From Paenibacillus durus (GTDB lineage Bacteria; Bacillota; Bacilli; Paenibacillales; Paenibacillaceae), in the NCBI RefSeq assembly GCF_000756615.1, contig NZ_CP009288.1:4289000-4320999 (forward strand): a stretch of DNA of 32,000 bases, written 5' to 3'. The position numbers were made by a program, and so were the translations under genes. Shown piece by piece: positions 6,832 to 25,479 of the stretch (positions are counted from its first letter, which is position 1; the number at the start of each line of letters is the position of its first letter). The notes under the pieces are model-generated. The model was given only the letters and a program-made list of their open reading frames with translations, was not told the origin of the DNA and searched no databases.

Positions 6832-6854
6832 GCAAACAGAAGAGAGGAAGAAAC

Positions 6855-9800
6855 ATGACAAAGATACCACATAACAATGAGGATGAAGTGGAACGTCGCC
6901 TGATTGGAGTGTTAGGGGAAGGGCATAATCAGTGGAATTATCGTCCGGATTTAAAATCTGAAGAAGACCTATGGAAGAACTTGCGTCAGAAAATTACGCA
7001 AAATAACTTATCAGAAATTGGAGATCATACAATTTCTGATAAAGAATTTGACACGATTAAAACAGAGTTACTATCAAAAACACAGACACCCTTTGATGCT
7101 GCTAGATGGCTCAAAGGGGAGAATGGAATTGCTCGTATTACGATTGAACGTGAAGATGTATCTTTAGGTTCGATGTCTTTAGTGCTATATTCCAATCAAG
7201 ACATTGGTGGCGGAATCTCTACATATGAAGTCGTTCATCAGATTGCGAAACAAAAGGTAAACGTTGATGATCGTGATCGCCGATTTGACGTGACACTCTT
7301 AATCAACGGGTTGCCAATTGTTCAAATTGAATTGAAACAAATCAGTGCTAAAGACGGCGTATTTCAAGCCTATAATCAAATTAAGAAATACGCAGAAGAA
7401 GGAATGTTTAGAAATAATATCTTTTCTACTCTTCAGGTATTTGTCATTTCCAACGAACAAACGACTCGCTATTTTTCCAATGCGATGCCAAAAGACATGC
7501 ATAAGAAATTTGTCTTTAGTTGGCGGACATCGGACAATCGAAAAGTAGAAAATCTCTATGAATTTGTAAAACAGTTCTTAAATATTCCAGATGCACATAG
7601 ATTGATTGCCAATTATACGATTGTTAGCGAGGACCAGGACAACAAAGCATTAATGGTATTACAGCCTTATCAAATTCATGCGATTGAAGCCTTGTTTACA
7701 TCTGCAATGAAACATGAATCTGGATATGTTTGGCATGCGACCGGTTCAGGAAAAACGTTGACAAGTTTTGTTTCTACGAAGTTATTAGCTCGCAAACCAG
7801 GTGTAGATCGTACAATTATGCTCATTGACCGAAAAGACTTGGATAATCAAACGACGACAGAATTTACTAAATTTGCTTCCGAATTTAATACCGGTATTTC
7901 TTCTGGTAAAGCCAAGTCTAATAGCTTGATTGTCGGAACCGGAAGTGCGAAAGAACTAAGTAATACTCTACTATTTGATGCCAATTCCAATACAGTGATT
8001 ATTACCACTCGTCAAAAATTAGAAGCTGCCTTACGCTATGCCCAAAGGCAAGAGGATCGAAAAGGTACCCAACGATTTAAGAAGCTACTGGGGCAACATA
8101 TTGTCTTTGTCGTGGATGAATGCCATCGAGCGTTGAGTGCTGAAGGGATGGAAGAGATTAAGGGATTCTTTCCAAACTCTACATGGTTTGGTTTTACAGG
8201 TACGCCGATATTTAATGAAAATAAAAAACAAGCTAAAGGCCAATTAGCTCGCACCACTCGTGATCAATATGGAGAAGTTTTGCACACTTATACCATTAAG
8301 AATGCATTGGATGATGGGGCCGTTCTAGGGTTCCAAGTAGAGCATGAAGATACGATTGAACCCACATCATTAAATAATTATATCTTTAATCAACTGCGTG
8401 CAAATGGAAAATATGCCGATTTTAGTGATGATGAAATTAACGATATGATCGATCAAATGGATGGCGTGCAAAAGGAAGCATATCTTGAACCATCTTTTTT
8501 TGAACGTGATGAACATATTAAAAAAGTCATTCATAAGATTTTTCGACCAGATAATGCTTATATCAAATTTGATTTCCAAAACGGTCGCCCGCAGAAGTCT
8601 GCCATCTTAACAACTAAATCCATTGATATGGCGAAACGCTACTATCAGGCAATCAAGGAAATGACCAAAGATCCAGAATGGTTGACGAAAGAATTTGCTG
8701 GACATCCGATCCGAACAGGGCGTACGATTGAAGATCCGAACTTCCCTCGTATTGCCGTCACCTATTCGATACAAGAAAACGAAGATAATTCCAAACAAAT
8801 TCAAGATGAAATGAAAGAAATTATTAAGGACTATAACGATTATTATAATACAGCTTGGTCGATAGAAGATATTGAACGATATAATGGCGATATCAACAAT
8901 CGTTTAGCTCGTAAGAAAGCAGAATTCAAAGAATTTGGGAAACAAATTGATCTTGTCATTGTTGTAGATCGCCTATTAACTGGATTTGATGCACCCACGA
9001 TTCAAACGTTATTTGTGGATCGAAATTTAAGTTATGCCAATTTGATTCAAGCCTTTTCTCGGACTAATCGTACCTATCCCGGGAAGATAAAAGGATTAAT
9101 TGTAACATTCCGAAAACCTTCGACAATGGAACAGAATGTAGAAGATGCCACGAAGTTATATTCTCACGCACAAGAGGAATCTAATCTTGTTTATCCAACA
9201 TATGATGAGTCGAAGAAACGCTTCCAAAAGGCTCACAAAACATTGAAAAAACTGGTGCCAAATCCAACCGACATTAACGAGCACTCTCCACTTGAAACTC
9301 GGATTGAATTTGTGAAAGTTTTTCAAGAACTAAATAATGCTTACGAAGCTTTAGTAACGTATGATGATTACAACGATGAAATAGAGAAATCAAAAGTCCT
9401 CCAAGAACAGGTCAAGACCCTAGAAGAATATTTTGGCGTATACAACACGGTTAAGGGATCGCTAGTTGTTGAAGGGGAAGATGGACCTGATCCAAATTTC
9501 TCGGACATTGAATTCTATGGAGAAAATGCGGTTAAGATTTATGATATTGACTCAACCTATATTGACCGTTTATTAGAAACGTACTCAGCCAATAATCAGA
9601 ATATCCGTGACGAGATCGAAATAGCACTTCAAAAACTGAAAAAATCAGAAATTGTTAAAGAAGTATACCGCGCGATTTTAAACGCCATTGATGCCAAAGA
9701 AATAAATTCAGAGGAAGATACTTTTGTAGTGAAACGACGTTTCTTCACCGAATCCTATAATAAAGCGATTGGAGAATTTGCGAAAGCTTGGTTTGTGGAT

Positions 9801-10010
9801 GAAGGAGAGCTGCATTCATCTGCTGTTCAATATGTAATAGGATCAGAACCTATTCCAAATATCGGGGGAATTATTGACAGCAAGCAATTTGATAAGTTTA
9901 AAGCCGTACATCCAGATGTAAAACCGTTAAAATACGGGCCAGAAATGAAGCGTCAGTGGAGAAAGACGTTAGATGAAGTCATTGTTCCTTTGAAGGATGA
10001 GTTGAGATAA
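6855..10010 (+). CDS. hsdR: type I restriction enzyme R subunit (HsdR), apparently intact
   Basis: 1051 aa. Helicase motif I is HATGSGKT and motif II is VVDECHRA. Length and N-terminal nuclease-region layout are typical of HsdR. AGAGGAAGAAAC precedes the ATG. Confidence 0.9.
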   Translation: MTKIPHNNEDEVERRLIGVLGEGHNQWNYRPDLKSEEDLWKNLRQKITQNNLSEIGDHTISDKEFDTIKTELLSKTQTPFDAARWLKGENGIARITIEREDVSLGSMSLVLYSNQDIGGGISTYEVVHQIAKQKVNVDDRDRRFDVTLLINGLPIVQIELKQISAKDGVFQAYNQIKKYAEEGMFRNNIFSTLQVFVISNEQTTRYFSNAMPKDMHKKFVFSWRTSDNRKVENLYEFVKQFLNIPDAHRLIANYTIVSEDQDNKALMVLQPYQIHAIEALFTSAMKHESGYVWHATGSGKTLTSFVSTKLLARKPGVDRTIMLIDRKDLDNQTTTEFTKFASEFNTGISSGKAKSNSLIVGTGSAKELSNTLLFDANSNTVIITTRQKLEAALRYAQRQEDRKGTQRFKKLLGQHIVFVVDECHRALSAEGMEEIKGFFPNSTWFGFTGTPIFNENKKQAKGQLARTTRDQYGEVLHTYTIKNALDDGAVLGFQVEHEDTIEPTSLNNYIFNQLRANGKYADFSDDEINDMIDQMDGVQKEAYLEPSFFERDEHIKKVIHKIFRPDNAYIKFDFQNGRPQKSAILTTKSIDMAKRYYQAIKEMTKDPEWLTKEFAGHPIRTGRTIEDPNFPRIAVTYSIQENEDNSKQIQDEMKEIIKDYNDYYNTAWSIEDIERYNGDINNRLARKKAEFKEFGKQIDLVIVVDRLLTGFDAPTIQTLFVDRNLSYANLIQAFSRTNRTYPGKIKGLIVTFRKPSTMEQNVEDATKLYSHAQEESNLVYPTYDESKKRFQKAHKTLKKLVPNPTDINEHSPLETRIEFVKVFQELNNAYEALVTYDDYNDEIEKSKVLQEQVKTLEEYFGVYNTVKGSLVVEGEDGPDPNFSDIEFYGENAVKIYDIDSTYIDRLLETYSANNQNIRDEIEIALQKLKKSEIVKEVYRAILNAIDAKEINSEEDTFVVKRRFFTESYNKAIGEFAKAWFVDEGELHSSAVQYVIGSEPIPNIGGIIDSKQFDKFKAVHPDVKPLKYGPEMKRQWRKTLDEVIVPLKDELR

Positions 10011-10931: not shown

Positions 10932-11516
10932 TCACGAAAGTTGCCAAAATCCTGCAATCGGATTTTGAATCTCATTATCCATTATTTGGGTGAATTTATA
11001 CAAAGCTCCAAAACCAAAAAGCAAATTTCCTTTAACAAAATTTCTCGGATAACCATCTTCATCTACCTGAAACATAAATGCAAATGAGTCTTCCGTTAAC
11101 TTCGAAAAATAATAGTCCTCATCTTGAATTAGCCTCGGAGTGCCACCAATTTTAATCAAAAAAGATTGCTTTATAGATTTCTTGTCATTGATTATTTCCC
11201 CGCCTGTAATTGAATGCTTTTTAAGTCTTGGGTGTGTAAAAATATCTTTGGTGCTTTCTGCTTTGATTGGGTGATCAAATACCTGTATCGAACAATTGGG
11301 ATAAATATTTTTTTCTAAATACTCTTTAAAATCATTTGGAATGAAAATGCAAATCATACGATCATGTTGAAAAGGGTTAACTAAACTTAAATAAAAATAA
11401 TGTTTGTTACCATTTTTGTTTACCAATTCGACCTTATCGTCAAAGAACAATGGCGCTCTTCCGCCTATCCAACTTGTGCAAGTTTCAATAGGCAGCTTGC
11501 TTGAAAAACCATACAC
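10932..11516 (-). CDS. DUF1963/YwqG-like protein (putative orphan immunity protein)
   Basis: 194 aa, AT-rich. The pattern ..WIGGRAPLFFDD..YFYLSL..GGTPRLIQDEDYYF..FAFMFQVDEDGYP.. resembles the two GG-x-P blocks of the YwqG/DUF1963 family, which occurs in polymorphic-toxin loci. GTG start. Confidence 0.45.
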   Translation of the reverse strand: MYGFSSKLPIETCTSWIGGRAPLFFDDKVELVNKNGNKHYFYLSLVNPFQHDRMICIFIPNDFKEYLEKNIYPNCSIQVFDHPIKAESTKDIFTHPRLKKHSITGGEIINDKKSIKQSFLIKIGGTPRLIQDEDYYFSKLTEDSFAFMFQVDEDGYPRNFVKGNLLFGFGALYKFTQIMDNEIQNPIAGFWQLS

Positions 11517-11745
11517 TGAGTTCTTTCTTCGAAAATTTTCTTGAAATTTTAATCTTCAGGTGATTGTCTAGGTAATGATGAATAAAATGAATATCATGGA
11601 TCTCTAAGAATTTATTTACATATTGCTTCCATAAGGAATACTCGACACCATTGAGAAAACGTTTACAGTAGTTCGAGATAAGGTCTTCAGTAGATACTTT
11701 AAAACGAGGCGATTTAAAAAAGACTCTTGTTATTTTCTTGTACAT
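11485..11745 (-). CDS. hypothetical small protein
   Basis: MYKKITRVFFKSPRFKV.. preceded by GGAGGG. It overlaps the next ORF by 32 nt in a different frame. No recognisable motif. Confidence 0.3.
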   Translation of the reverse strand: MYKKITRVFFKSPRFKVSTEDLISNYCKRFLNGVEYSLWKQYVNKFLEIHDIHFIHHYLDNHLKIKISRKFSKKELSVWFFKQAAY

Positions 11746-11885
11746 AAACCCTCCATAAATAGTCAAAAGATCAGATACACTTAAAGCATAGAACAAGCTA
11801 TAAACAAATTAAGCCCTTTTATATCCAAGAGAATGTTTGCCTAGGCCTTCCTTTTCGTATTTCACAAGCCTTTTTGGCTTGTCAT

Positions 11886-12005
11886 TTATTTTTCTGACTT
11901 TTTTGTGTGTTCTTTACCTAAAATATCTTGAACATCGGAAGGAGACATAGAAAATTTTATTTCACCTAAACCAACCTTTGGATATATTCTTAGTTTTTGT
12001 GTCAT
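11886..12005 (-). pseudogene. remnant of an immunity-type gene
   Basis: MTQKLRIYPKVGLGEIKFSMSPSDVQDILGKEHTKKSEK* stops early. A neighbouring frame continues ..VKYEKEGLGKHSLGYKRA*, which suggests frameshift decay. Confidence 0.3.
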
Positions 12006-12190
12006 CCTTAATCTCACTCTCATTCTCTGAAACGAGTAGTTGCTAAAATAGTTGTTCCGGCAAAAGGTTGTCAAGAATATTAACAAACCCTTTCGCCGGA
12101 CAAAACTTCATTTTCCTGCACTCCAAGGGCTATTGCTACTCTTTAGCATGGAAACGATTTAGATGACACTGAAAGAACCCATTTTACTAA

Positions 12191-12769
12191 TTACATATCA
12201 GCTACATTAAAATTATATATCTCATCTTCTCGTGGATCATTTAAGCCATCAAATTCATTAGTTTCAACAAGCGAGAATGAAAATCCATAGTTTGCATTAG
12301 GATATTCTAATTCCTGTTTACGAGCGTATCCCGAAATTTTAAGAAAATATTTTCCGTTTTTAAAGTTGTATCTAAATCCATAATATAAAGGCTCTCCATC
12401 AAAGGTTTCAGATTTAATTACATCCTCGTTAAATCTTTCCTTATTAAAATCCAGAAACACTCCTAAACCCGCTATCCACAGGTAATCTTTGATTTGTATA
12501 TTGAAATCTACATGCTCAAAAACTTTTTTCCACTCATCATTAAAAAACTCTCCATTGTTCTCCAATTTTATTGAATACTTTATTGCATTTATAGGCACAA
12601 AAGGAATCCAAGCACCCTCTCTAAGAGACTGTAAATAACGATCATGATTATCTTGAAAGTTTTTTAACACCTTTTTTGTTCTCACTTTTTCTTTCTTCAA
12701 AAACTCATGAAGAACATCAAGAGAAAATACACTAACCCCATAGCTTGTGGCTGTTAAAACTTTATCCAT
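12191..12769 (-). CDS. putative cognate immunity protein of the Rhs C-terminal toxin
   Basis: 192 aa. It starts 13 nt after the rhs stop, preceded by GGAGCTGGGG, and is AT-rich like the toxin tip. It is homologous to 2958-3470, which follows the homologous orphan toxin. Confidence 0.6.
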   Translation of the reverse strand: MDKVLTATSYGVSVFSLDVLHEFLKKEKVRTKKVLKNFQDNHDRYLQSLREGAWIPFVPINAIKYSIKLENNGEFFNDEWKKVFEHVDFNIQIKDYLWIAGLGVFLDFNKERFNEDVIKSETFDGEPLYYGFRYNFKNGKYFLKISGYARKQELEYPNANYGFSFSLVETNEFDGLNDPREDEIYNFNVADM

Positions 12770-12781
12770 TACCCCAGCTCC

Positions 12782-15700
12782 TTATTTTTTTCTGCAAGGA
12801 ATTGTTCCTTGTGCGTTCAGTTCCTTTAACTTTTTTAATGCTTCTGAAGGAGTTAAGTTCATAAACAAATGGTTATCTGTAAATGGAATTTTCATAAATC
12901 CTTTAACATCAATATCTGTATATGCCTTCATTGCTTTGTCAAAAAATTCATCAGCGGTTCCCGTAAATTTGGAACCATGGAATGGAACACCTGCATCAAT
13001 AAGATTTCTGTGCAATTGTTTATGGATATCTGCTGTTCCAATTCCCTTGTTCGGATACCATGCAATTGAATCAATTTGACTCAATTCAGAAATACCTAAA
13101 GTCTTCGCTATAGATCTTGGCATTAAATGATGGCCCATTCCAGTATCTAATAAATCAGAGTAAAGGCCAAATACATCAACATTTCGATTCGGATCTCCCA
13201 CATACCCATACAACGTAGGGTTATTCCCCGCCAGCCCTATCGGGTCCTGCTGTGTATAAATCCCCTCATGCGGCGAGTAATAGCGGAAACGGTTGTAGTA
13301 AAGACCTGTTTCCTCGTCTTCGTATTGACCTGAGTAACGGAACGGACAATCGGATCTTTTGCCCTGGAGATAAATATTTTGGACGTTGCCGTAAATGTCC
13401 AGTTCGCAAGACCATACGCGTTCCCCGTGTTCATTATACATCTCTACCGGGGTGCCCAGGTGGTCGGTGATGATGCTGTACGTACCAGTGGCCGTAATTT
13501 TGGCGGCCGGGCGGAAGGTTCCGTCTTCAAACACCCAGGTCGTCAAAGTGGCAGGGTCAGGTTCTTGTGCAGCAACGGGATGAGATAGCAGGTGTCTAAA
13601 TTTTTCTGCCGCTCCTTGAGGGGCAGCTAAGCCAGATTCAGGCTTTCTATCATGCTCGTCCTGCTTGCTCTCCGCTGTCCATTCATGCAAAATTTGGTTC
13701 CCGTCCCACATATAACAGTATACTACGCCGTTGAAGTGCTTCTCAATCCGGCGTCCTAGACTGTCATAGGTGAACACCACTTCCTGGCCGTCCGGACGTA
13801 CGACCTTGCTCATCATACCGTTGCCGTAATACTCATAGCGCCAACGGCTGCCGTCTTTCTCCAGCTTTTCGATCAGTTGGCCTTCTTCATCATAGCTGTA
13901 TTTCGTTCCTTGGAATTCGAGCAATCGCCCGCCTGCGCCGTATTTTCGGTCTGTGCGATGACCGCTGCTGTACAGGTTCCCGACATCGTCCGCCATGCGG
14001 AAGATTTTATCGAACTCGTTGCTGGCCCCGATCAAGGTGCCGAAATCGTCATAGTTATAGCGGATTGCCTTACCTGTCAGTTCGTTCGTCAGCGATTTCA
14101 GGCGGTAATTGATATCCCAAGCGTACTTTCTTTTCCGGCTTACGTGGCCGCCGCTGCTCACACTGTGCCGTTCCGGTCTTCCGATGATATCGTATTGCCA
14201 TTTACTTACTACACCGCCAGGGAGCAGTCTTTCGATTTCTTGTCCCAGCTTGTTATAGGTCATTTGCGCAGTCCATGGCATGCTCGTTGCAGTTGGGGAC
14301 GTGCCGTGCCCAGTCTGCTCTAGCTCCTGTACTTTTTGCTCCGCCTGCAACTGGCTAATCTGACCCAACATATCCCGGTCCATCTTGATGTGTGCGCCCA
14401 GGCTGCTGCTTACTTCCGTCCGGTTGCCGAGTTCATCATACTTGCTGGCGATCCAATATTTGTCCCGCCATTCCTGGATCAGACGGCCGGTTGCATCATA
14501 CTCCAGCTTGACCGTGGCAAACGGATTGGTGGTCTCCAGCAAAGCCCCGATCCGGTTGTACTTGTACGTTTCGATCAGACCGTCGCTGTAAGCCGTTTGC
14601 GCTATGCGGCCCATTTCGTCGTAACTGAACGCCGTCCACCGGCCGGCGGAGCGCTCCACCCTTTCCAGCAATCCGCCAGAGCTGCGTACATATTGTCTGA
14701 CGATGCCGTCAAACCCAGTTTCCCGAACAATTTTACTGTTGGCGTCACGTTCCAGCGCATACCGCTCCCCATGCTCGTTGATGACTGCCGTCAGCTCTTC
14801 CTCGTTGTTATATACCAGCTCAACCCGCTTTCCTTTTGCTTCGCGCCAGGTCATTTGCCCGAGCGGGGTATATCCGAATGTGACGCGCTGCTTGGAATCC
14901 TCCGCGGCGATGACTTCTTCGTACGCATTATATTGCAGCTTGATCACGTTGCCATCCGGCAGTTCGGCCCGAACCACCCGGCCCAAAGCATCGTAGGTAA
15001 AATACTGTTTTGCGCCCAGTGGGCTCGTCGTTTGCAAACATTCTCCCCGGTGATTGTAGCTCCACTCGGCACTCGTTCCGTCCGGCAGCGTCATCCGGGT
15101 TAAATTATAGTGATCGTCATACGCCAGCATCGTCGCTGCGTCCTGCGGGTTTCGCACCTCGCAAATCCGGTGGCGTTCATCGTACACAAACGTTGCCGCG
15201 GTCCCATCCGCGCTGGCGACCCTGTTTAATCTCCCCTGTTCATCATAATCCCAGGATTGGCTCCCGCCTTCCGGGTCGATTACTTGCAGCAGTTGCCCCT
15301 GCTCGCTGTACATGTACTGCCAGCTGCTGCCGTCCGGCTGGATCGTCTGCACCAACTGGCCCTGCTCGTCATACACATACTGCGTCAATCGGCCATCCTC
15401 GTCCGTTTCGCTCAAAAGGTCGGCCGTATCGCTATAGGTATATTCGTATCTGCCGCCTAGCGGGTTGATGATTGCTGTACAGTAATACTCCGGCGTATAT
15501 TCATACTTTGTCGTATGTCCCTGACTGTTCGTCACCTCATTGTATCCGTCAAAATAAGCGATTCGCCCTTCCAACAGCCCGTCTTCGCCCCATGTATGCA
15601 CGCAGCGCGCTCCCGTGGTTGGGCCGTCATAGCGCCAGTAGAAGCTATACCCGTTGCGGTCCTTTTTCTCGGTCATCAGATGCTGGTCATAGGTTTGATA

Positions 15701-18529
15701 CGTGGTCTGGCCCAGCGCGTCCGTAATAGCAATGAGGTCGCCCGCTTCGTTGTACCGGTACTGCACCAACACTTCGCGTTCCTGTTGATACAGATGGGTC
15801 ACCTTCACGATCCGTCCGGCTTCGTCGGTCTTGATGTCCAGCACCCGGCCTACGCTATCGGTCACCTGCTGCAAGTAGCCGCGCGCATCATAGGTTAAGA
15901 CGATCCGACGACCGATCTCATCCTCGATGCGGGCCAGACGGTACGGCCTGGCTGCTTCCTCCTGCGGCGAAGCCTGCTGAACATCGCCTTTCTGCGGAAC
16001 CGGTTTGTTTATACGGTACCCAACGCCCCGTATCTCCTGCGACTCCTCTGCTGTCCTGTGCTGGACCTCTGCCCTCTTCATCGCTCCTGACGGACGATTC
16101 GCTGCGATCGCAGACTCGAAGACATACGTCAGGCGGCTTTCTTCCTCCACCATCGCATATCCGGTTCCCTCGCGGCGCAAGGTGAGCCGTTCTTTCGGGT
16201 TCCGTGTTTCCATTAGGCCCCGGTGCAAGCGTTCAAATCCGGCTGCTCGCCCATCCGCTAACAGCACGCCGATGCAGTCGTCCAGCACCTCCAGCCGCAT
16301 ATCGAAGCTGTGATGCACGCCATGCCCAAGCCATCCTTGATGGCGGCTGTCGCTGATCCAGCGGCGCTCCCAACGGAGCGGCAAGGAACCCGGAAACTCG
16401 AAGTCGGTCGCTTCGCTCATCATCCGCCCGGTAATCAGGTCTACCGGCTCGAAGCCCCATTTACAGAAACGGTCCCCAAGGCCCTTGGTGCACTCGAATT
16501 TCTTCAACACTTTATGGTTGAACTTGGTAAGCGCATTCTTCGCGCCGGATTTCTCCAATGCCTTTTTGAACAGCGCCTTGCTCTTCTCCGCCAGCCTCCG
16601 CTCCATCGCAGCCAGCTTCTTGGCCAGCAGGTCCTTTAAGGCATCGGCCTGGCCCTTCAGCTTCCGCGCTCCGGTTAGCACTTTGTTCAGTGAGTTTTTG
16701 CCGAACTGGACAGCCCTTTTTGCTGCGGCCCGGCCGATTTTCCCGGCCATTTTCCCCGCAAGCTTGCCGCCTGCTTTCACCGCCGCCTTGGCCGCTACCT
16801 TCGCCGCACCTTTCGCCGCCAGCTTCGCTGCCCCAAACGCCGCGCCCCCGAAAGGCAGCATCGTGCCGATGGATAACGCCGCGCCGAAAAAGTCGCCCCG
16901 GCAGAGGCTCACGACCGCGCTTGCCGCTCCCGCGATAACGCCAAGTCCCGGCACCATGCTCAGCACATCCAGCGCGGTGCCCAGCTTCTCCAGGAATCCG
17001 TCCCGCTCCTTATCGCTCTTGGCTTGCTCCGCCTCTGGATTGCTCAAGGGCTCAAACGATTGCCGCTCGCTTCCCTCCATCGTCACCTCCGGCCCCATCA
17101 CATCGGTCGTATCGTTTAGGATAAGGCTGCTTTGCCCGCCGGCGATCCACAGCTCTTCTTCCGCTTCGGCGCGAAACGTCTTCAGTTCGCTAAAGGCCAG
17201 CTCCTGTTCCGCCGTCAGCACGATGTCTTTGTCGCTTTGCAGCGTGATGCCGCCTTCTTCCCCGATGGTGACGAATAGCGTGCCTTCCTTCGCCGTAAAC
17301 GAAATATCTGTCGTTCCCAGCTCAAATTCCTTCCCCCCGCCGGTAGAAAACGATTTGACGGTAGAGTCTGCCATTTTCTTGTTTGCTTTCTCCGCCGCCT
17401 CCCCTTGCGGGGAGAACGGGGTGCGGACCGACTGGATCAGCATCGCGTCCGCTTCCTCATGGCTCGGGAAATACAGCTTGATCCTGGAGCCGATCGGCGG
17501 CATGGCGTGAAAGATGTGACTCGCTGGGGAGGAATACGGAAACCAGACCGCTTCCTGCTCCGGTTGGTCTTCGTCGATATCCAGATGCACCTTCGCTTTC
17601 TTGACTCCGATGGCGAGGATGCGCCCTTCCATGGCCAATCCTGCCAGATTTTCGTTGTACCGCTTATTCTGGCGAAGTCCCACGGGCGTCGTACACAAAT
17701 ACGTAAACTCCAACATCCCTTTACTCAGTTGGCCCAGGACCCCTGCGACCACAAACCGGCGTCCGGCCGCTTCCACTTCGGACCCAAGCTCAAGCCACTG
17801 ATCCATTCGCACCGTAAAGCGGGTAAAGTCCTGCTCCTGGAAGCCCTCGGCCCCCGTTTGCACAGCGGTCAGGAACGATTGTACGTCATGCTCAATTTGG
17901 TACAATCCTTCTTCCAGCTTCACCTGCTGCTTTACCGTCGGCGTGCCGATCCATACCCGCGGCTCATGGGTACTGACATCCGGCGTCACCACGGCCCCCG
18001 CATGGGAAGCCACCCGCTGAATAAAATCCCAGTCGGTCTCTTCGTACTGGAGCAGCAGATCGCCAATCGTTGCTCCGTGCTCAAAGGCATCGGTTTCCAG
18101 AAAATCGCCGCCCGGATACGCATGGATCACTTCTTTCAGCACATCGGTATACGCCATATCCGCATGCTGGAAGGAACGGCTTATCCGCTTGACATCCATC
18201 TGATAGGAATGTGAAATGATGTCCACTTGGACAGTCCATACATCGTGGAAGCGATCCGCCTGAATGTTGTGCAACTGGCCGAGAAACAGCGGGTAATCCG
18301 CCTGCCCTTCCCGAACCGCATACAGCCCGGCCCGGTCGCGGCTGCTGCCTTGCCGTACCAGCTCATGGCTGTCCTCCTCGCTCATGACGCCCTGAAGCTG
18401 CAAGACCGCATGCATGCCGGGGTATCGCTTCAGCTTCACTCCCTCAAGCCGCAGCTTTCCATACGGCCATTTGAGCGCGATGTCCTGCACGGTCAAGCCT
18501 GACAGGCGCCCCCATTCGTTTCCTAACAC
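12782..18529 (-). CDS. VgrG-like::linker::Rhs/YD-repeat polymorphic toxin with C-terminal GHH-signature HNH/EndoVII-type nuclease domain
   Basis: 1915 aa; GTG start after GAGGGGGG.
- aa 1-~490 (17060-18529): paralog of the 496-aa VgrG-like protein, with gpD-like blocks, a WFPY..PPIGSRIKLYFPSHEEAD OB-fold block and a beta-helix-like tail.
- aa ~517-572 (16814-16981): Gly/Ala hydrophobic segments.
- aa ~573-680: Lys/Ala-rich segment.
- aa 692-730: GFEPVDLITGRMMSEATDFEFPGSLPLRWERRW, the Rhs N-terminal plug.
- aa ~866-1745: YD repeats.
- Core end: YYNRFRYYSP..DPIGLAGNNPTLYGYVGDPNRNVDVFGL.
- aa 1790-1915 (12785-13162): GMGHHLMP..HKQLH toxin. A sharp fall in G+C starts near 13200. Confidence 0.9.
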   Translation of the reverse strand: MLGNEWGRLSGLTVQDIALKWPYGKLRLEGVKLKRYPGMHAVLQLQGVMSEEDSHELVRQGSSRDRAGLYAVREGQADYPLFLGQLHNIQADRFHDVWTVQVDIISHSYQMDVKRISRSFQHADMAYTDVLKEVIHAYPGGDFLETDAFEHGATIGDLLLQYEETDWDFIQRVASHAGAVVTPDVSTHEPRVWIGTPTVKQQVKLEEGLYQIEHDVQSFLTAVQTGAEGFQEQDFTRFTVRMDQWLELGSEVEAAGRRFVVAGVLGQLSKGMLEFTYLCTTPVGLRQNKRYNENLAGLAMEGRILAIGVKKAKVHLDIDEDQPEQEAVWFPYSSPASHIFHAMPPIGSRIKLYFPSHEEADAMLIQSVRTPFSPQGEAAEKANKKMADSTVKSFSTGGGKEFELGTTDISFTAKEGTLFVTIGEEGGITLQSDKDIVLTAEQELAFSELKTFRAEAEEELWIAGGQSSLILNDTTDVMGPEVTMEGSERQSFEPLSNPEAEQAKSDKERDGFLEKLGTALDVLSMVPGLGVIAGAASAVVSLCRGDFFGAALSIGTMLPFGGAAFGAAKLAAKGAAKVAAKAAVKAGGKLAGKMAGKIGRAAAKRAVQFGKNSLNKVLTGARKLKGQADALKDLLAKKLAAMERRLAEKSKALFKKALEKSGAKNALTKFNHKVLKKFECTKGLGDRFCKWGFEPVDLITGRMMSEATDFEFPGSLPLRWERRWISDSRHQGWLGHGVHHSFDMRLEVLDDCIGVLLADGRAAGFERLHRGLMETRNPKERLTLRREGTGYAMVEEESRLTYVFESAIAANRPSGAMKRAEVQHRTAEESQEIRGVGYRINKPVPQKGDVQQASPQEEAARPYRLARIEDEIGRRIVLTYDARGYLQQVTDSVGRVLDIKTDEAGRIVKVTHLYQQEREVLVQYRYNEAGDLIAITDALGQTTYQTYDQHLMTEKKDRNGYSFYWRYDGPTTGARCVHTWGEDGLLEGRIAYFDGYNEVTNSQGHTTKYEYTPEYYCTAIINPLGGRYEYTYSDTADLLSETDEDGRLTQYVYDEQGQLVQTIQPDGSSWQYMYSEQGQLLQVIDPEGGSQSWDYDEQGRLNRVASADGTAATFVYDERHRICEVRNPQDAATMLAYDDHYNLTRMTLPDGTSAEWSYNHRGECLQTTSPLGAKQYFTYDALGRVVRAELPDGNVIKLQYNAYEEVIAAEDSKQRVTFGYTPLGQMTWREAKGKRVELVYNNEEELTAVINEHGERYALERDANSKIVRETGFDGIVRQYVRSSGGLLERVERSAGRWTAFSYDEMGRIAQTAYSDGLIETYKYNRIGALLETTNPFATVKLEYDATGRLIQEWRDKYWIASKYDELGNRTEVSSSLGAHIKMDRDMLGQISQLQAEQKVQELEQTGHGTSPTATSMPWTAQMTYNKLGQEIERLLPGGVVSKWQYDIIGRPERHSVSSGGHVSRKRKYAWDINYRLKSLTNELTGKAIRYNYDDFGTLIGASNEFDKIFRMADDVGNLYSSGHRTDRKYGAGGRLLEFQGTKYSYDEEGQLIEKLEKDGSRWRYEYYGNGMMSKVVRPDGQEVVFTYDSLGRRIEKHFNGVVYCYMWDGNQILHEWTAESKQDEHDRKPESGLAAPQGAAEKFRHLLSHPVAAQEPDPATLTTWVFEDGTFRPAAKITATGTYSIITDHLGTPVEMYNEHGERVWSCELDIYGNVQNIYLQGKRSDCPFRYSGQYEDEETGLYYNRFRYYSPHEGIYTQQDPIGLAGNNPTLYGYVGDPNRNVDVFGLYSDLLDTGMGHHLMPRSIAKTLGISELSQIDSIAWYPNKGIGTADIHKQLHRNLIDAGVPFHGSKFTGTADEFFDKAMKAYTDIDVKGFMKIPFTDNHLFMNLTPSEALKKLKELNAQGTIPCRKK

Positions 18530-18558
18530 GTCTTTCCCCCCTCGATCACCGGATGATG

Positions 18559-18960
18559 CTACGCTTTTTTCTGCCCGTCATCGGCGATGTAGATGACTCC
18601 CTCCGCATGCTTGGTGCACATGATATACGAATCGCTGGTTAACACGGCTTTTCCGTCAATGAGCACATCCGCTTTCCCGTTCATCCACTCCATGTTCACT
18701 TGCGGCTCGCATGGCTTGTCCAGCGCTTCGCATACGCCGAAGGTGGCCGGGATGTTGACGACGGCTTTGCTGTCCGCCACATTCATCAGCGGCTGCCCCT
18801 GAATATAAGCGCCATGACAGGTCGGCAAATTGAGCAGATTGGGGTTGCTGCCGCACTGGCACTCCAATATCGCTCCCCTCACCACATAGCTGGCTTCCGC
18901 TCCCGCCGCCGCCTCCACGCTGGGGGGGCTAGGTTTCCTGAACGCTATAAAGCTTGCCAT
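18559..18960 (-). CDS. DUF4280 (PAAR-like) domain protein
   Basis: 133 aa from ATG 18958-18960, preceded by GAAGGAGGG. The pattern GAILECQCGSNPNLLNL..GQPLMNVADS..NIPATFGVCEALDKPCEPQVNMEW..VLIDGKAVLTSDSYIMCTKHAEGVIYIADDGQ matches my recollection of the DUF4280 Cys/Gly signature. It ends 29 nt before the rhs start. Confidence 0.7.
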   Translation of the reverse strand: MASFIAFRKPSPPSVEAAAGAEASYVVRGAILECQCGSNPNLLNLPTCHGAYIQGQPLMNVADSKAVVNIPATFGVCEALDKPCEPQVNMEWMNGKADVLIDGKAVLTSDSYIMCTKHAEGVIYIADDGQKKA

Positions 18961-19027
18961 TTGTTGTCCCTCCTTCAAGCTTCTTCGCAAGTGTTGCCGG
19001 TTTTCGTCTTATGCTTCGCGCTTTGCT

Positions 19028-19519
19028 TCAGGCAAGCTCTACCGGGGTAAAGTGAAGCCCTGTAAATCCCCGTCTTTGCAAACTTTCCGCTACATCCAGA
19101 CGGACGATCAGGATGTCTTCCTTTACTCCCGCCACGCGAAAGATGCGCTCCCGCCTCACTTTTGTTTCCGCCAGTACCAGCCGTCTACAGGCTCCGCTTG
19201 CATCCACTTGCGTTCGTTCGGACAAGCTGTCCGTTTCGCCCGGCTCCATGAACCAGTAGATATCCTGACGCCGGGTGCTGCGTCCCGTTAAGACGGCGGA
19301 ATAAAACCGCAGGAAACGATCGTATTTCTCCAGCAAGCCTTTCATCCGGTCCGATACGAGCCAACGGGGATGGTCGATGAAGTCGAGATAGACCGGTTGT
19401 TCCCCGTCTTCCTTCACAAATACAATATTCCGCTCGTAGATTTCCATGTCCCTGCTGACGTGTTCCAAACGCATGCCATCGACAAACCGCTTGTCCTGCT
19501 GCAATCGAAAGTAGTACAC
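19028..19519 (-). CDS. hypothetical protein; candidate immunity or adaptor protein (weak Imm11/DUF1629-like pattern)
   Basis: I prefer GTG 19517-19519, preceded by GGAAGGAG 7 nt upstream (163 aa), over the track ATG at 19582, which would overlap the upstream gene. The pattern ..PRWLVSDRMKGLLEK....IFRVAG..ILIVRLDVAESLQRRGFTGLHFTPVEL resembles Imm11-type proteins. The assignment is weak. Confidence 0.35.
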   Translation of the reverse strand: MYYFRLQQDKRFVDGMRLEHVSRDMEIYERNIVFVKEDGEQPVYLDFIDHPRWLVSDRMKGLLEKYDRFLRFYSAVLTGRSTRRQDIYWFMEPGETDSLSERTQVDASGACRRLVLAETKVRRERIFRVAGVKEDILIVRLDVAESLQRRGFTGLHFTPVELA

Positions 19520-19547
19520 CTGCCTGCTCCTTCCCCCTGTGCGTGGT

Positions 19548-20678
19548 CTATGGGCGAACTTCCACCAATTGCCCCGTCTCATCCTCTTCCATCCAGATGA
19601 CCTGCCGTTTCTGCTCTTCGCTTAACGCAAATTGCGCGGCATCCTGCCAGATGATCTTGGCCCCATCCAGATTGGCGCCATGAAAGTAAGCGCCTTCCAG
19701 ATCCGCAAACAGCAGGTTCGCCCCTTGCAAATTCGCATGCGTAAAATTCACGCCGAAGGTCCCCAGGATTTGCCCTTCCAGGATCAGCGGCTGTCCGCCC
19801 GCTGCATGCCAGAAATTCGCTCCTTGCAGGTCGCAATGGCTGAAATTGGCATCATAGAGCACGCTTTGGCTGAGATCGACGCCCTGCATGTTGCTGCGGC
19901 TGAAATCGACCCCTGCGCATATGCTTTTGTTGAGGCGGCTTCCCGCCAGGTTAGCGCCTGTTACATGACTGTAGCCTAAGTCGGCGCTTTCGTAGTTGCC
20001 GCCGCTCAAATCCAGGCTGCGCCAGTCCTGGTAGCGGTGAAGCGAACCGTCTCGTTGCTCCAGCCGGGCACGGATGGCCGCAGCATCTTTTTCTCGCCGT
20101 TCCTCTACCCATACGTCCTCGCTTAGATCCATATATTCGCCTGCACGAATGCGGAAAATGTCGGCGCGCCGGAGCTGTTGAAATTCCGGAAGCTCCACGA
20201 TGCGCGGAACCGCCGCACGAACGAGGCTGATCACATAATGTCCGGCTATGGCCGTATCTTCCATCCATACGCGGTCACTTTCCAGCGGCAAGATTTCGCT
20301 TCCATAGCTTTTGCGCGACGCCTCTATGGTGTTTCGGTAGGTTTCCAGGTGGGCGTACAGCCACGGCGCTTCGTGCAGTTCGATGCTGGCCTCCCGGTCC
20401 AGATACCAAGTGTCGTCATACGCTTCCAGGCTGCACATGAGTTTTCCCTGCCCTAGCCAGGAACGCAAATACGAAACGTGCATGTAGGCGATGGGCCGCT
20501 TGTGTCCGGCTTCTTGCATCGCTTGAATGCGAAGACACAGCTTGCGAAAGGGTTCGATCCACTCCTTGGTATACGCATGAGCCTGCGCGCGAACCTCTGC
20601 GCCCATTTGCCGGATCATCGCTTCCCGCTGCTGTGCGACACCTTGCGTAAGCCATTGTTTCAACGCGTCCTGCTGCAA
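19548..20678 (-). CDS. pentapeptide-repeat protein with an unknown ~225-aa N-terminal domain
   Basis: 376 aa; TTG start preceded by AAGGAGA. The C-terminal ~140 aa carry obvious A(D/N)LxG pentapeptide repeats: ADLGYSHVTGANLAGSRLNKSICAGVDFSRSNMQGVDLSQSVLYDANFSHCDLQGANF..NFTHANLQGANLLFADLEGAYFHGANLDGA. Confidence 0.8.
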   Translation of the reverse strand: MQQDALKQWLTQGVAQQREAMIRQMGAEVRAQAHAYTKEWIEPFRKLCLRIQAMQEAGHKRPIAYMHVSYLRSWLGQGKLMCSLEAYDDTWYLDREASIELHEAPWLYAHLETYRNTIEASRKSYGSEILPLESDRVWMEDTAIAGHYVISLVRAAVPRIVELPEFQQLRRADIFRIRAGEYMDLSEDVWVEERREKDAAAIRARLEQRDGSLHRYQDWRSLDLSGGNYESADLGYSHVTGANLAGSRLNKSICAGVDFSRSNMQGVDLSQSVLYDANFSHCDLQGANFWHAAGGQPLILEGQILGTFGVNFTHANLQGANLLFADLEGAYFHGANLDGAKIIWQDAAQFALSEEQKRQVIWMEEDETGQLVEVRP

Positions 20679-20709
20679 TGGTTTTCTCTCCTTAAATGGT
20701 TTTTTCTCG

Positions 20710-22200
20710 TTAGTTGGTATGGACTTGCGTTCCCTTCACATCGGCGCGGTCTTCGAGCATCACGGAACTGCCCTTACACGTCATCTCCAATTTTTCCTGG
20801 GCGGAAATCGTGATTTTTTTCGAGGCCAACATCACTTCTTCCGTCGCTTTCACTGTCACGTTTTTGCTGCTGACAATTGAAATGCCTTCTTCATCGCTCA
20901 GCATAATGGACACGCCATCGCCCGTGATGAGGATATGATCGGGAGCGAGCACGATCATCTTGCCGTTCTTGGTCTTGATGGTTTTGATGCTCGGATCTTC
21001 CATCGGATCGCTTCCGCCGCCGCTTGCTGATGCCATGCCTCCGCTGGGCACTCCTGCCATGCCGACGCTTTGCCCTCCGCTTGCCGATGCCGGTTCCGCT
21101 TTCGGTTTCGGCACGGAGCTGATTGCAATAACATCCTCTTCTTTATGCGTTGGAAAATAGACGCGCACATCGTCGCCGATCTCCGGCATGCAATACCAGC
21201 CCGCATTGTCTTCCGAAGCGTAGATGGTTGAGTACGGAAACCAGAACGCCTTACCCGCGTCTTGCTCGGGATCAATGTTCAGATGTGCCTGAATCCGGTC
21301 TTTGGCTACCGCAATCACTTTGCCCTGCAGTGAGACCCCGACGATAGCCATGTTATATTGCTTTCGCCGGCTCAAGCCCAGCCGCGTGCCTAAGAAGTAC
21401 GTATGCTTTAACAGCCCGTCCTTCAGATCCGTTCTGACTTCGCTTACGACAAGCTGCTGGTTGTCGAACGCAACCTCCATGCCGATGTCGAATACTTGAT
21501 CGGTCTCCACTTCATAGAAGATGCAATCGCTCTCGCTCAATTCCGGCACTTGTCCCTGGACGGATAGCTGATACAGCTCCATCCGTTTATGTATCCGGTA
21601 ATGGTAAGCGTTAACTTCCTCCTTAAAACCAGGCTCCGGAATGCCAAAGTGCACCTTCGGGGAATCAAAGCCGATCGCCGGTACAAGTCCGGTGTTAAAG
21701 TGGGAGGCTAACCGTTTCAATAATTCCCAGTCGGTCTCCCGGTACTGTAAAATCATGCGGCCAATAGCAGCGCCATTCGAAGCTTCATCCATAACGTCCG
21801 CGCCGTCGTAATCCTGTACGATCTGATCCACCAACTGCGCATACGCAAGTCCCGTATCTTGAAATGTACGTTCCTTTCGCGTCACATCGAACTGATACGA
21901 TAGCGATACCGCCTCCATTTCGAGGTGGTATACGTCCCGAACGTGATAGATTTGCATATTCGTGACCATGCCTTGAAACAGGGTTCTCTTCCCGCTATGT
22001 TCCAGCCTTTGCGTAACGGCCACATTCATTCGGGCATAATCCATCCCGGCATAACCGGCCTTCTGTTCTTCCGGCACGATGCCTTTCAGACGAAGTGTAG
22101 CGTGCTCGTTGATTTCCTGTACAATGGTCAGCTCCCGGATCGACTCTAACGCAAACGGCGTGACTTCAATGTCCTGATAAGTCGCATAAGATCGTTCCAT
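20710..22200 (-). CDS. VgrG-like spike protein (gpD/gp27-like hub, gp5-type OB fold, beta-helical C-terminus)
   Basis: 496 aa from ATG 22198-22200, preceded by GAGGGGGA. The track start at 22299 is unlikely. Blocks include ILQYRETDWELLKRLASH (gpD-like) and WFPYSTIYASEDNAGWYCMPEIGDDVRVYFPTHKEEDVIAISSV (OB-fold). A Gly/Ser linker follows, then repetitive beta-strand-like ..ILITGDGVSIMLSDEEGISIVSSKNVTVKATEEVMLASKKITISAQEKLEMTCKGSSVMLE... It is a paralog of the Rhs N-terminus. Confidence 0.75.
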   Translation of the reverse strand: MERSYATYQDIEVTPFALESIRELTIVQEINEHATLRLKGIVPEEQKAGYAGMDYARMNVAVTQRLEHSGKRTLFQGMVTNMQIYHVRDVYHLEMEAVSLSYQFDVTRKERTFQDTGLAYAQLVDQIVQDYDGADVMDEASNGAAIGRMILQYRETDWELLKRLASHFNTGLVPAIGFDSPKVHFGIPEPGFKEEVNAYHYRIHKRMELYQLSVQGQVPELSESDCIFYEVETDQVFDIGMEVAFDNQQLVVSEVRTDLKDGLLKHTYFLGTRLGLSRRKQYNMAIVGVSLQGKVIAVAKDRIQAHLNIDPEQDAGKAFWFPYSTIYASEDNAGWYCMPEIGDDVRVYFPTHKEEDVIAISSVPKPKAEPASASGGQSVGMAGVPSGGMASASGGGSDPMEDPSIKTIKTKNGKMIVLAPDHILITGDGVSIMLSDEEGISIVSSKNVTVKATEEVMLASKKITISAQEKLEMTCKGSSVMLEDRADVKGTQVHTN

Positions 22201-22838
22201 TATGAATCCCCCTCTTCCCGTTCCATCGGGTTGATGTGCAGGGAATCCATGATGCCAAGCGCAATCGGACGCCACTGCTCCTGATATCGCTCCATGCAAT
22301 TGAGACCGAAGAAGAGCCCTTTCCCCTCCAGTTCAATGAAAAATATGCCATTATACATCACACCGTCCAGCACAGGCACGGTAAATTCATAAAAGCCCAT
22401 CTTGCGGCCTCCGACCTCGCGCACCCCTTCTCCCAACCACTTCGCATTCGGCTGCATCCGTTTGATCAGGAAGCTGAGGTCCTGTACAAACTGTTCCATT
22501 TCATGGTTAACCATTCTGTTGTTCGTCGGATTTACGGTCAGATTAATCTCCAGCGTCTCATCGGTGTAGATGATTTGGGGACGCCGTTCGGCGGGATATT
22601 TGATCCTGGCGTACTCCTCCGGCATGGGTTCGAAGGAATCAGGCACAAACATAAAGACTTGATCGGGCACTACCTCCGTCCTTTGAAATGTAATGACCTC
22701 ATCGCCTAATGTAAGCTCTCCCGCTTGAATCGCTTGGCTGACGTTTTCCGGAGTTAATGCAGCCTTCAACGCCTCTTGCTTCTCCATCTGTTCCTGCTTG
22801 CCAATCAGCTCAAGCCATTGTTCGTCCATATGTTCCAT
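22200..22838 (-). CDS. hypothetical protein, first gene of the operon; candidate chaperone/adaptor
   Basis: Track ORF 22200-22886. I prefer the ATG at 22836-22838 (MEHMDEQW..), 5 nt after AGAGGGA, because the ATG at 22886 has no SD. Its TAA overlaps the VgrG-like ATG (TAATG at 22198-22202). No motif recognised with confidence. Confidence 0.6.
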   Translation of the reverse strand: MEHMDEQWLELIGKQEQMEKQEALKAALTPENVSQAIQAGELTLGDEVITFQRTEVVPDQVFMFVPDSFEPMPEEYARIKYPAERRPQIIYTDETLEINLTVNPTNNRMVNHEMEQFVQDLSFLIKRMQPNAKWLGEGVREVGGRKMGFYEFTVPVLDGVMYNGIFFIELEGKGLFFGLNCMERYQEQWRPIALGIMDSLHINPMEREEGDS

Positions 22839-22892
22839 ATGCATCCCTCTTTCCGTTTCCGATTGGAATACGTCTTGTCTATTCATAGCTGC

Positions 22893-24985: not shown

Positions 24986-25479
24986 TTACATGGCTTTATG
25001 AAATTTCGAGGAGTCCTCCAGTGTCTTGACCCATTCTGAAAACCTCGCAGGAGGCATTAACTTCAAGCTGCCATGCATCTTGCGGTTGTTGTAGAAGTCC
25101 ATATATTGATCAAGGGCCTCGTAAGCTTCCTCGAAGGTCCTGAACTCTGTTTGGCTGAATAGATCGCGTTCCAATAAGCTATGAAAGGATTCAATGTATG
25201 CATTCATATTTGGTGTCCGTGGCGGGATGCGTTCGTGAATCATCTCCAGGCTTTCACAGGTATCTCCAAATAACTTACTGACGAATTGCGGTCCGTTATC
25301 TGTTCGAATCACGGGCAGGGCTTCTCCGGATTGGAGACGACTCTGTAGCGCCCGCCATAGGGTTTGGACCGCATGTTTGGCCTCACATACGGGTCCTCTG
25401 TACTGCTGGACCACGACACGGTCAAATACATCAATGATACTAAGCACGAAAAAGAAACGTTCCTGACCGATGATGTAGC
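24986..25479 (-). CDS. IS3 transposase OrfB, 3' exon (rve/DDE domain, second Asp and Glu)
   Basis: ..YIIGQERFFFVLSIIDVFDR..VIRTDNGPQFVS..NAYIESFHSLLERD..YNNRKMHGSL.. It is in frame with exon 1 when the intron (25480-27765) is removed. Confidence 0.8.

Follow-up and report, generated by a model that had tools for sequence, protein, structure and literature searches.

Across the 32,000 nucleotides of Paenibacillus DNA analysed here (the window), one operon of seven minus-strand genes encodes the parts of a VgrG-like spike, a DUF4280 tip and an Rhs toxin. This operon is probably an auxiliary spike-and-toxin module of a Bacillota injection machine that resembles type VI secretion systems (T6SS) and is encoded elsewhere in the genome. 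We read it as an auxiliary effector module because Paenibacillus durus ATCC 35681 holds both a large gene cluster and, at a distance from it, an orthologue of the window operon. The composition of the module, its synteny and the existence of main and auxiliary loci are direct observations. The apparatus itself appears to be phage-tail-derived and to inject in a T6SS-like manner, and we place it outside canonical T6SS, extracellular contractile injection systems (eCIS) and type VII secretion systems (T7SS) because the defining features of each were tested for and not found.

An earlier note on this DNA, made from the sequence, had described seven co-directional genes with a TAATG stop/start overlap at 22198-22202. 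All seven open reading frames (ORFs) indeed run in one direction from 22886 to 12191, and inspection of the sequence confirms the overlap. In order, they encode a DUF1795/Eag-like putative chaperone (N215), a VgrG-like protein (VgrG-1), a pentapeptide-repeat protein, an Imm11-like protein, a DUF4280 protein, a 1915-aa fusion of a VgrG module, a hydrophobic linker and an Rhs region, and a putative immunity protein (Table 1).

VgrG-1 matches the Pfam families Phage_GPD (8.3e-7), Phage_base_V (3.9e-5) and DUF2345 (5.8e-4). The Phage_GPD match, at 28.9 bits, lies under the cut-off of 30.1, as does the TIGR01646 vgr_GE match (1.8e-14) under its own, and Phage_base_V reaches 24.3 bits, over its cut-off of 23.8, which identifies a gp5-type OB fold. 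A family profile built from 12 sequences matched solved T6SS VgrG and eCIS spikes (8gra, 3e-13; 7aef, 3e-12; 7b5h, 6.5e-10; Pvc8, 6e-3), with the strong matches (3e-13 to 6.5e-10) spanning profile positions 300-503. The gpD/gp5 (VgrG) assignment made in the earlier note stands on these matches, and the two VgrG-like modules, VgrG-1 and the N-terminal part of the Rhs protein, are paralogues as it had supposed, being 29% identical over 493 aa (E 1.4e-68). The best homologue of VgrG-1 is a P. durus protein of 96% identity, named at NCBI ‘contractile injection system protein, VgrG/Pvc8 family’, in keeping with the Firmicute host that had been proposed.

The 133-aa protein, earlier recognised by size and cysteine pattern as DUF4280, belongs to that family by profile (PF14107; 88.7 bits against a cut-off of 26.3), with the whole model from 1 to 109 covered and six cysteines in the domain; in its treatment of the family, Lays et al. 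2016 (PMC5349215) give four cysteines as the defining feature. This form starts at an ATG, as in P. durus. The large protein proved to be the Rhs cage that had been expected: QQDPIGLAG is readable in its core, and plug, repeats, core, variable C terminus and immunity gene are all present, as in Rhs/YD polymorphic toxins. A reading of the operon as spike, tip and Rhs cargo is thereby supported at profile level, and genes 1 and 4 could be further identified as DUF1795/Eag-like and Imm11-like, respectively.

As a single sequence N215 has no Pfam match. Its family profile (A9, 27 sequences) matches DcrB (13cz, 1e-6) and a DUF1795 protein (6e8a, 2.9e-6) over about 150 residues, which at the level of the family gives it the DUF1795/DcrB fold of Eag chaperones. 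T6SS Eag chaperones have the DUF1795 fold, and they shield hydrophobic helices in PAAR and Rhs effectors. The true start of N215 is likely to lie near 22838, giving 212 aa and matching the P. durus form. Between the VgrG module and the plug of the Rhs protein, hydropathy peaks at residues 516-526 (above 1.5 in a 19-residue window), and by analogy with prePAAR/Eag-dependent T6SS effectors this segment may serve both as a membrane-insertion element and as a chaperone client, to which N215 would bind. The pentapeptide-repeat protein, whose N-terminal domain of about 215 aa has no Pfam match, is a conserved partner of the spike and probably an adaptor. For the Imm11-like protein, whose family profile matched no PDB sequence, the candidate roles are those of an adaptor or an immunity-fold protein.

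Table 1. Positions of the operon features and of the orphan Rhs remnant within the window
Feature	Position	Strand	Description
Gene 1 (N215), putative chaperone for the Rhs hydrophobic linker	22200..22886	-	Acidic, coiled N terminus, then DUF1795/DcrB/Eag-like domain
VgrG-like spike protein 1 (VgrG-1), 496 aa	20710..22200	-	Putative gp27-like hub, gp5 OB fold, β-helix
Pentapeptide-repeat protein, 376 aa	19548..20678	-	N-terminal domain of ~215 aa and C-terminal pentapeptide repeats; Pentapeptide 6e-24
Imm11-like protein (I11), 163-184 aa depending on start	19028..19582	-	Imm11 7.7e-8
DUF4280 PAAR-like tip, 133 aa from ATG	18559..18960 (ORF to 18990)	-	DUF4280 4.8e-25
VgrG-like module 2	17060..18529	-	First ~490 codons of the 1915-aa protein (12782-18529); Phage_GPD 2.4e-6 (sub-threshold)
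Gly/Ala-rich hydrophobic segment, residues ~516-560	16850..16984	-	Between VgrG module and DUF6531 plug/Rhs cage
Rhs/YD cage	13250..16450	-	DUF6531 plug 1.2e-21, RHS_repeat 9.6e-66, RHS core 1.5e-9, DPIGL motif
C-terminal toxin domain, ~126 aa	12785..13162	-	GHH...HxxxH motif by eye
Putative cognate immunity protein, 192 aa	12191..12769	-	Directly after toxin
Orphan Rhs core remnant, 248 aa	10024..10770	-	RHS_repeat 5e-20, RHS 8.9e-9; without N terminus or toxin

Main and auxiliary loci

Profile scans across the whole 32 kb detected no sheath, tube, baseplate, ATPase or T7SS family, in agreement with the earlier note, which had left the choice between a machine encoded elsewhere and an uncharacterised route of delivery. 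Each of these options is borne out in part, the first by a cluster about 1.55 Mb away in P. durus and the second in that the route is not a known T6SS, eCIS, tailocin or T7SS. VgrG-1 has a further 524 homologues in Paenibacillus, Lysinibacillus, Brevibacillus, Aneurinibacillus, Solibacillus and Clostridia, and a scan of one genome per species returned at least 591 relatives, every one of them in Bacillota. From the genome scan 80 related loci with 10 kb flanks were kept, and ORFs were called and clustered in 87 loci, the window included. Five families make up a core of fixed composition, comprising VgrG-like (86 of 87 loci), pentapeptide-repeat (80), Imm11-like (78), N215 (73) and DUF4280 (68) proteins, in which the N215 gene adjoins the VgrG gene and the pentapeptide gene comes directly after it. 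The core is followed by a second VgrG, which is fused to Rhs in 21 loci and in the others either is fused to other toxins or is about 510 aa long with a separate PT-TG toxin next to it; small immunity-like genes come after the second VgrG or the toxin. One Lysinibacillus locus (CP073713.1, L003 16074-20726) has an unfused second VgrG of 512 aa, then separate PT-TG toxins of 434 and 520 aa and small genes, so that one spike module is used with two or more kinds of toxin architecture.

Directly upstream of the core, 34 of the 87 loci (about 40%) carry a conserved block of constant order, which consists of a membrane FHA protein, a second FHA protein, a membrane PP2C, a PP2C-like protein of about 553 aa with transmembrane and TPR segments, and proteins of about 425 aa, 231 aa, 880 aa (Hsp70/actin-like) and 261 aa, each family being found in 26-35 loci. 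Further upstream lie genes for a VWA membrane protein, a 722-aa protein, a 141-aa Hcp/TssD-like protein and a J-domain protein. The order of this extended block in B. laterosporus is identical to that in P. durus, with a Ser/Thr kinase in addition; an Acetivibrio locus has a rearranged version, kinase included, and in two loci from metagenome-assembled genomes (MAGs) the 722-aa and 141-aa genes adjoin the VgrG operon in divergent orientation. We term the loci that have no block auxiliary, and these include the window, P. durus L001 and a Lachnospiraceae MAG (L005). Four genomes hold loci of both kinds, namely Brevibacillus sp. 179-C8.1 (L017, L031), B. porteri (L015, L037), Brevibacillus FIR094 (L025, L035) and L. 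sphaericus SDF0037 (L029, L064).

Both kinds of locus also occur in P. durus ATCC 35681 (CP011114.1), the closest of the complete genomes. Its orthologue of the window operon, at 2,096,306-2,117,796, has ordinary housekeeping genes as upstream neighbours. On the same chromosome, about 1.55 Mb from this auxiliary operon, a core cluster that includes a member of the 425-aa family occupies 3,643,968-3,665,275. It starts with the VWA membrane protein on the opposite strand, followed by the 722-aa, 141-aa and J-domain proteins, two FHA proteins, a PP2C and a 601-aa PP2C-like protein, and continues with proteins of 435, 229, 883 and 257 aa before its own set of N215, VgrG, pentapeptide, Imm11-like, DUF4280 and VgrG genes. 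The terminal VgrG of this cluster is a truncated form of 245 aa. The 722-aa protein (98% identity) is also encoded in a second P. durus genome, as is a 474-aa VgrG that shares 84-86% identity with the VgrGs from the core clusters of two further Paenibacillus species.

The neighbourhoods also bear on two other origins for the module. Genes of this kind could be the baseplate hub of a prophage or a PBSX-like tailocin, with the Rhs spike mounted on a phage-tail-like particle that is encoded elsewhere and freed by lysis. Paenibacillus and Brevibacillus do make tailocins, and some homologues bear names such as ‘phage baseplate assembly protein V’ or ‘late control gene D’. However, the ten system proteins that were scanned against PHROGs matched no annotated phage structural family, and none of the 86 related loci showed a tail, capsid, terminase, holin or lysin gene within 10 kb, judged from the annotated loci and from the clustering of all 87, in which no conserved tail block appeared beside the hub. 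The earlier note had named an abutting prophage tail or tailocin as one finding that would overturn its reading, and none adjoins the operon here, at its P. durus counterpart or among the 80 loci with their flanks. The conserved FHA, PP2C, J-domain and Hsp70-like partners are moreover non-phage genes, and a polymorphic toxin system that is resident in the genome is indicated by the immunity genes together with the orphan toxin cassettes. We rejected a prophage or tailocin on the lack of PHROG matches and of a tail-gene block beside the hub, and hold it to be highly improbable.

The second is export of the Rhs toxin by T7SSb, Sec or another general pathway, in which case the VgrG-like and DUF4280 proteins would do no more than carry the toxin passively or anchor it at the cell surface. 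Bacillota Rhs/YD toxins are usually assigned to Sec (WapA type) or to T7SS (PMC3482391), yet Pfam finds no LXG or WXG domain in the seven proteins and their N termini are free of signal peptides by eye. Nor is there a T7SS gene in the Pfam-annotated loci or a T7SS family among the conserved neighbours of the 87 loci; the genes with which the module shows tight linkage are instead baseplate-like and Hcp-like. This route was rejected in its turn, for want of LXG/WXG domains and T7SS neighbours, and we give it hardly any credence.

Core-block proteins and a proposed mechanism

The proteins of the distant block are candidate parts of the machine that the window operon would serve. The 425-aa protein was modelled with AlphaFold2 from a 31-sequence alignment (pLDDT 82.3, pTM 0.78), and a Foldseek search of the PDB with this model gave two hits only at E≤1e-3, both of them baseplates of injection systems: that of the S. 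coelicolor contractile injection system (CIS; 9gtp_2G, 1.6e-4) and that of the T6SS TssK-TssF-TssG complex (6n38_I, 2.8e-4, prob 0.98), with 6giy_B in fourth place. By their length, the matched chains would be TssF/gp6-type subunits, and the model makes the 425-aa protein a probable TssF-like baseplate component. In the 141-aa family, four of five members match Pfam TssD/Hcp (best 1.2e-5), one also touches T4 gp19, and the top PDB profile match is Hcp1 (6bdc, E 0.17); hhalign against E. coli Hcp gave nothing. All 18 members of the ~880-aa family have weak HSP70 matches, and the motifs DFGTTNT and DCGGGTTD, of the Hsp70/actin phosphate-binding type, are invariant. The 231-aa and 261-aa proteins have no match, PDB profile searches included, and hydrophobic anchors are present in FHA-a, the PP2C, the PP2C-like protein and the VWA protein. 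Database names say little about the parts: the 425-aa family goes under ‘normocyte-binding protein’ and the 722-aa family under ‘transcriptional regulator’.

The 722-aa protein is a candidate for the sheath, and with it propulsion by contraction. It is soluble, and its gene adjoins that of the Hcp-like protein. Its identity between the genera Paenibacillus, Brevibacillus, Lysinibacillus, Aneurinibacillus and Sporosarcina is 79-98% (the P. durus copy lies at L087 2665-4833), which is unusually high for a protein with no assigned function and far above the spike (~42%) and the 425-aa protein (~45-55%). A search of 1.84 billion representatives returned 593 relatives of the family, the distant ones among them without a Pfam domain. 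Its best local alignments to sheath proteins, which are non-significant, fall on the C-terminal motif of TssB (residues 117-148) and on the conserved core of TssC (residues 459-571); this order is colinear with a TssB-TssC fusion and is recorded as a lead only.

A device of spike and baseplate that works without a contractile sheath has to be considered here. In such a device the Hsp70-like ATPase and J-protein, together with the membrane FHA, PP2C and VWA proteins, would push the VgrG/DUF4280/Rhs complex across the envelope or hand it over, and the role of the 722-aa protein would not be that of a sheath. That no sheath family was found by Pfam, PHROGs, PDB profiles or hhalign argues in its favour, as does the invariant presence in the cluster of an ASKHA ATPase and a J-domain protein. 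However, an Hcp/TssD-like protein is present, and tube proteins normally imply a sheath or tail; a soluble protein encoded beside an hcp-like gene and conserved to such a degree across genera is typical of sheath subunits, and the alignments to TssB and TssC, non-significant as they are, are colinear with a fusion of the two. On balance we consider a sheathless device unlikely, if far from negligible.

Several results weigh against an auxiliary module that serves a T6SS-like machine, and they concern both the identity of the core proteins and the relation between the loci. The Foldseek matches of the 425-aa model have low TM-scores (0.16-0.31), the same model gave nothing significant against BFVD, and by sequence neither a profile search of the PDB nor hhalign against E. 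coli TssF gave anything meaningful for the family. The P. durus member of the 141-aa family, the only one with a reported score, reaches 19.8 bits for TssD, under the cut-off of 25.8. The 722-aa protein has no match in Pfam, the PDB or PHROGs even as a 59-sequence profile, and its AlphaFold2 model was not used (pLDDT 35.6), an alignment of sequences 79-98% identical being the probable cause. With hhalign its comparison with TssB and TssC profiles (nine sequences each, from E. coli Sakai and eight plasmids, with the single E. coli TssB and TssC also compared) was insignificant (P 0.13 and 0.32). As for the loci, the presence of a core block in the window strain itself would follow by analogy with its closest relative, P. 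durus, and several Paenibacillus genomes show loci of the auxiliary type only among the 80 retrieved; for many such genomes, core proteins do turn up in searches for homologues of the 425-aa and 722-aa proteins. The VgrG of the ATCC 35681 core locus is frameshifted (L087 16213-17621), frame 1 encoding residues 1-129 and frame 3 residues 131-472. Because this VgrG is split and the terminal one is truncated, the auxiliary operon may supply the intact spike set in that strain.

We tentatively propose the following mechanism for the auxiliary module and its machine. VgrG-1 and the VgrG domain of the Rhs protein would form a trimeric spike, possibly a mixed one, capped by the DUF4280 protein, and the Eag-like protein would shield the hydrophobic linker. 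The loaded spike could then dock on the TssF-like baseplate of the distant core apparatus, where it would head the Hcp-like tube, and be expelled through the Gram-positive envelope into a neighbouring cell. There the Rhs protein would cleave itself and the cage would free the C-terminal toxin, from which the immunity protein would protect siblings. The FHA, PP2C and Ser/Thr kinase proteins may gate assembly or firing, as in the threonine-phosphorylation pathway of the H1-T6SS, and the Hsp70-like ATPase with its J-protein may take the energising or recycling role that ClpV holds in T6SS.

In its full form, which we put forward with somewhat less than even confidence, the proposal is that endospore-forming Bacillota (Paenibacillus, Brevibacillus, Lysinibacillus, Aneurinibacillus, Sporosarcina and some Clostridia) possess a type VI-like system of their own. 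This would combine a cytoplasmic Hcp-like tube, a VgrG/DUF4280 spike, a TssF-like baseplate and a 722-aa sheath of fused TssB-TssC type with an Hsp70-like ATPase and J-protein for ClpV and a membrane complex of FHA, PP2C, kinase and VWA proteins for TssJLM. It would fire VgrG-fused Rhs and PT-TG toxins through the Gram-positive wall, with the window operon as an auxiliary cartridge.

Relation to known injection systems

The closest parallel to the window operon is found in the auxiliary islands of proteobacterial T6SS, in which eag/DUF1795, vgrG, PAAR, rhs and immunity genes combine the same parts by the same logic, orphan C-terminal remnants included, and which likewise lie apart from the core cluster that they presumably serve. 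Pentapeptide-repeat proteins also accompany some vgrG/DUF4150 islands. Unlike these islands, the window belongs to a monoderm Paenibacillus, its tip is DUF4280 rather than a canonical PAAR protein, its VgrG is fused to Rhs through a hydrophobic linker, each module has two VgrG paralogues, and an Imm11-like protein is a fixed member. The main clusters differ too, the one described here being without recognisable TssB/C, E, G, J, K, L, M or ClpV.

Like canonical T6SS (subtypes i-iv), the system has VgrG-like and PAAR-like proteins and a VWA-domain protein of the membrane, along with candidates for an Hcp/TssD-like and a TssF-like component. FHA and PP2C proteins recall the PpkA/PppA/Fha1 threonine-phosphorylation pathway of T6SS, as does the Ser/Thr kinase of the B. 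laterosporus and Acetivibrio clusters. In contrast to canonical T6SS, no outer membrane has to be crossed, the place of the AAA+ ClpV is taken by an Hsp70/actin-like ATPase with a J-domain protein, and no family is reached by T6SS profile models at curated thresholds. TssJ/L/M and ClpV families were found in none of the loci examined, whose hosts, being Bacillota, have no diderm envelope, and TssE and TssK were not detected in the core cluster.

Among eCIS and cytoplasmic CIS (Pvc/Afp, AlgoCIS, Anabaena tCIS, Streptomyces CIS), the likeness is to the spikes, which the spike profile matches (7aef, 7b5h, 6j0m), and to the S. coelicolor baseplate, which the 425-aa model matches; CIS also occur in Gram-positive Actinobacteria. 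The sheath, tube, gp25, tape-measure and AAA+ ATPase families of eCIS were not detected here, the gene content is otherwise unrelated, and no tail fibre or tail genes lie within 10 kb of the hub, in the window or in the annotated related loci. For toxins of the PVC pathway, fusion to a VgrG module is reported never to occur (PMC3482391), whereas the cargo here is a VgrG-fused Rhs protein with an immunity gene.

That spike and tip genes occur oddly in Firmicutes is already in print. In the passages concerned, Lays et al. 2016 (PMC5349215) noted DUF4280 in Gram-positive bacteria and raised a T6SS-like system there as a possibility, and Zhang et al. 2021 (PMC8651086) described Phage_GPD beside PAAR_H2 (DUF4280) in Firmicutes, where genes of T6SS or eCIS were missing from the neighbourhood. 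Those passages deal with the same gene pair in the same phylum and stop at the pair; beyond them lie the core of chaperone, pentapeptide-repeat and Imm11-like genes, the distinction between main and auxiliary loci, and the block of FHA, PP2C, TssF-like, Hsp70-like and Hcp-like genes. Full-text searches, subscription-only papers being outside their scope, yielded no description of the extended cluster or of this content, and reviews up to 2026 still present type VI secretion as a Gram-negative machine. The operon is here tied to a fixed block of about 12 genes of baseplate-like, tube-like, chaperone-ATPase and phosphorylation-control types, which turns the Firmicute VgrG/DUF4280 puzzle into a concrete, testable candidate machine in culturable, genetically tractable Brevibacillus, Lysinibacillus and Paenibacillus. 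If our reading is correct, phage-tail-derived injection would extend to the monoderm Bacillota envelope, such a system would contain an Hsp70-type motor, and a large set of Gram-positive polymorphic toxins would be reassigned to a new export route.

Toxin, immunity and the surrounding window

Neither the toxin C terminus nor the 192-aa putative immunity protein has a Pfam match. The toxin domain is 50% identical to the C terminus of a P. durus Rhs protein and 42% identical to that of a Lysinibacillus Rhs protein, and by eye its histidine motif is similar to the Tox-GHH2 signature given in PMC3482391, which would make it HNH/Tox-GHH2-like. The immunity protein is 23% identical (E 9e-6) to the product of the gene in the same position in P. 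durus. Downstream of both, the orphan Rhs core shares 91% identity with the P. durus Rhs protein (residues 1458-1693) and only 61% with the resident one (residues 1457-1730); it is therefore a displaced ancestral C terminus. The resident rhs gene is itself a mosaic, since 13190-15892, in the C-terminal third, is 91% identical in nucleotides to a P. oralis allele while the region 13740-22865 is otherwise 88% identical to P. durus. These alignments are evidence that the Rhs C terminus was replaced by recombination, and the locus behaves as a polymorphic toxin locus. Homology to P. durus ends at 22865 and the flanks differ completely; the module therefore sits at different chromosomal sites in close relatives.

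The polymorphism of the toxin also bears on whether the system could act inside its producer, in regulated cell death or a process linked to sporulation, as a counterpart of the cytoplasmic CIS of Streptomyces. The best structural matches of the 425-aa protein do include the S. coelicolor cytoplasmic CIS baseplate, every named host genus is known as an endospore-former, and control by Ser/Thr phosphorylation suggests developmental gating. Against this stand several hallmarks of antagonism between cells: the C-terminal toxins are polymorphic and have immunity genes next to them, orphan cassettes occur, the Rhs C terminus shows recombination, and an Eag-like chaperone is paired with a hydrophobic linker. 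A role within the producer is, in our estimation, very unlikely, and injection into neighbours by a T6SS-like machine remains the reading that we prefer.

Between the immunity gene and the orphan Rhs core, three small ORFs of low GC (194, 103 and 66 aa) lie on the minus strand at 10932-12086. They have no Pfam match, and the 194-aa ORF is weakly similar to a small ORF downstream of a Lysinibacillus Rhs gene (35% over 66 aa); the three may be orphan immunity genes. On the other side of the orphan core, a type I restriction-modification island of 32-39% GC occupies 5571-10010 on the plus strand. Its HsdM appears truncated (364 aa, with N6_Mtase matched at model positions 3-164 of 311 only), HsdR is intact at 1051 aa and HsdS was not recognised. 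Between the end of the island and the truncated orphan core lie 14 bp, and insertion of the island probably cut the orphan Rhs cassette. GC content is 49-61% in the operon from about 13 kb to 23 kb, and 32-39% in the toxin tail, the immunity gene, the orphan-immunity region and the restriction-modification island.

Further out, an HTH_3 regulator of 459 aa (1049-2428, minus strand), which the earlier note had read as an RRNPP regulator, and an ECF sigma/DUF4367 pair (30073-31456, minus strand) are encoded, neither of which is conserved beside the operon in related loci. Upstream of the operon, at 24986-28533 on the minus strand, a group II intron interrupts an IS3-family transposase made up of HTH_Tnp_1 (28204-28533), HTH_21 (27752-28072) and the rve core (24986-25447); the intron carries a reverse transcriptase/maturase ORF (25570-27108) and the Rfam Intron_gpII domain (25480-25566, 60.9 bits).

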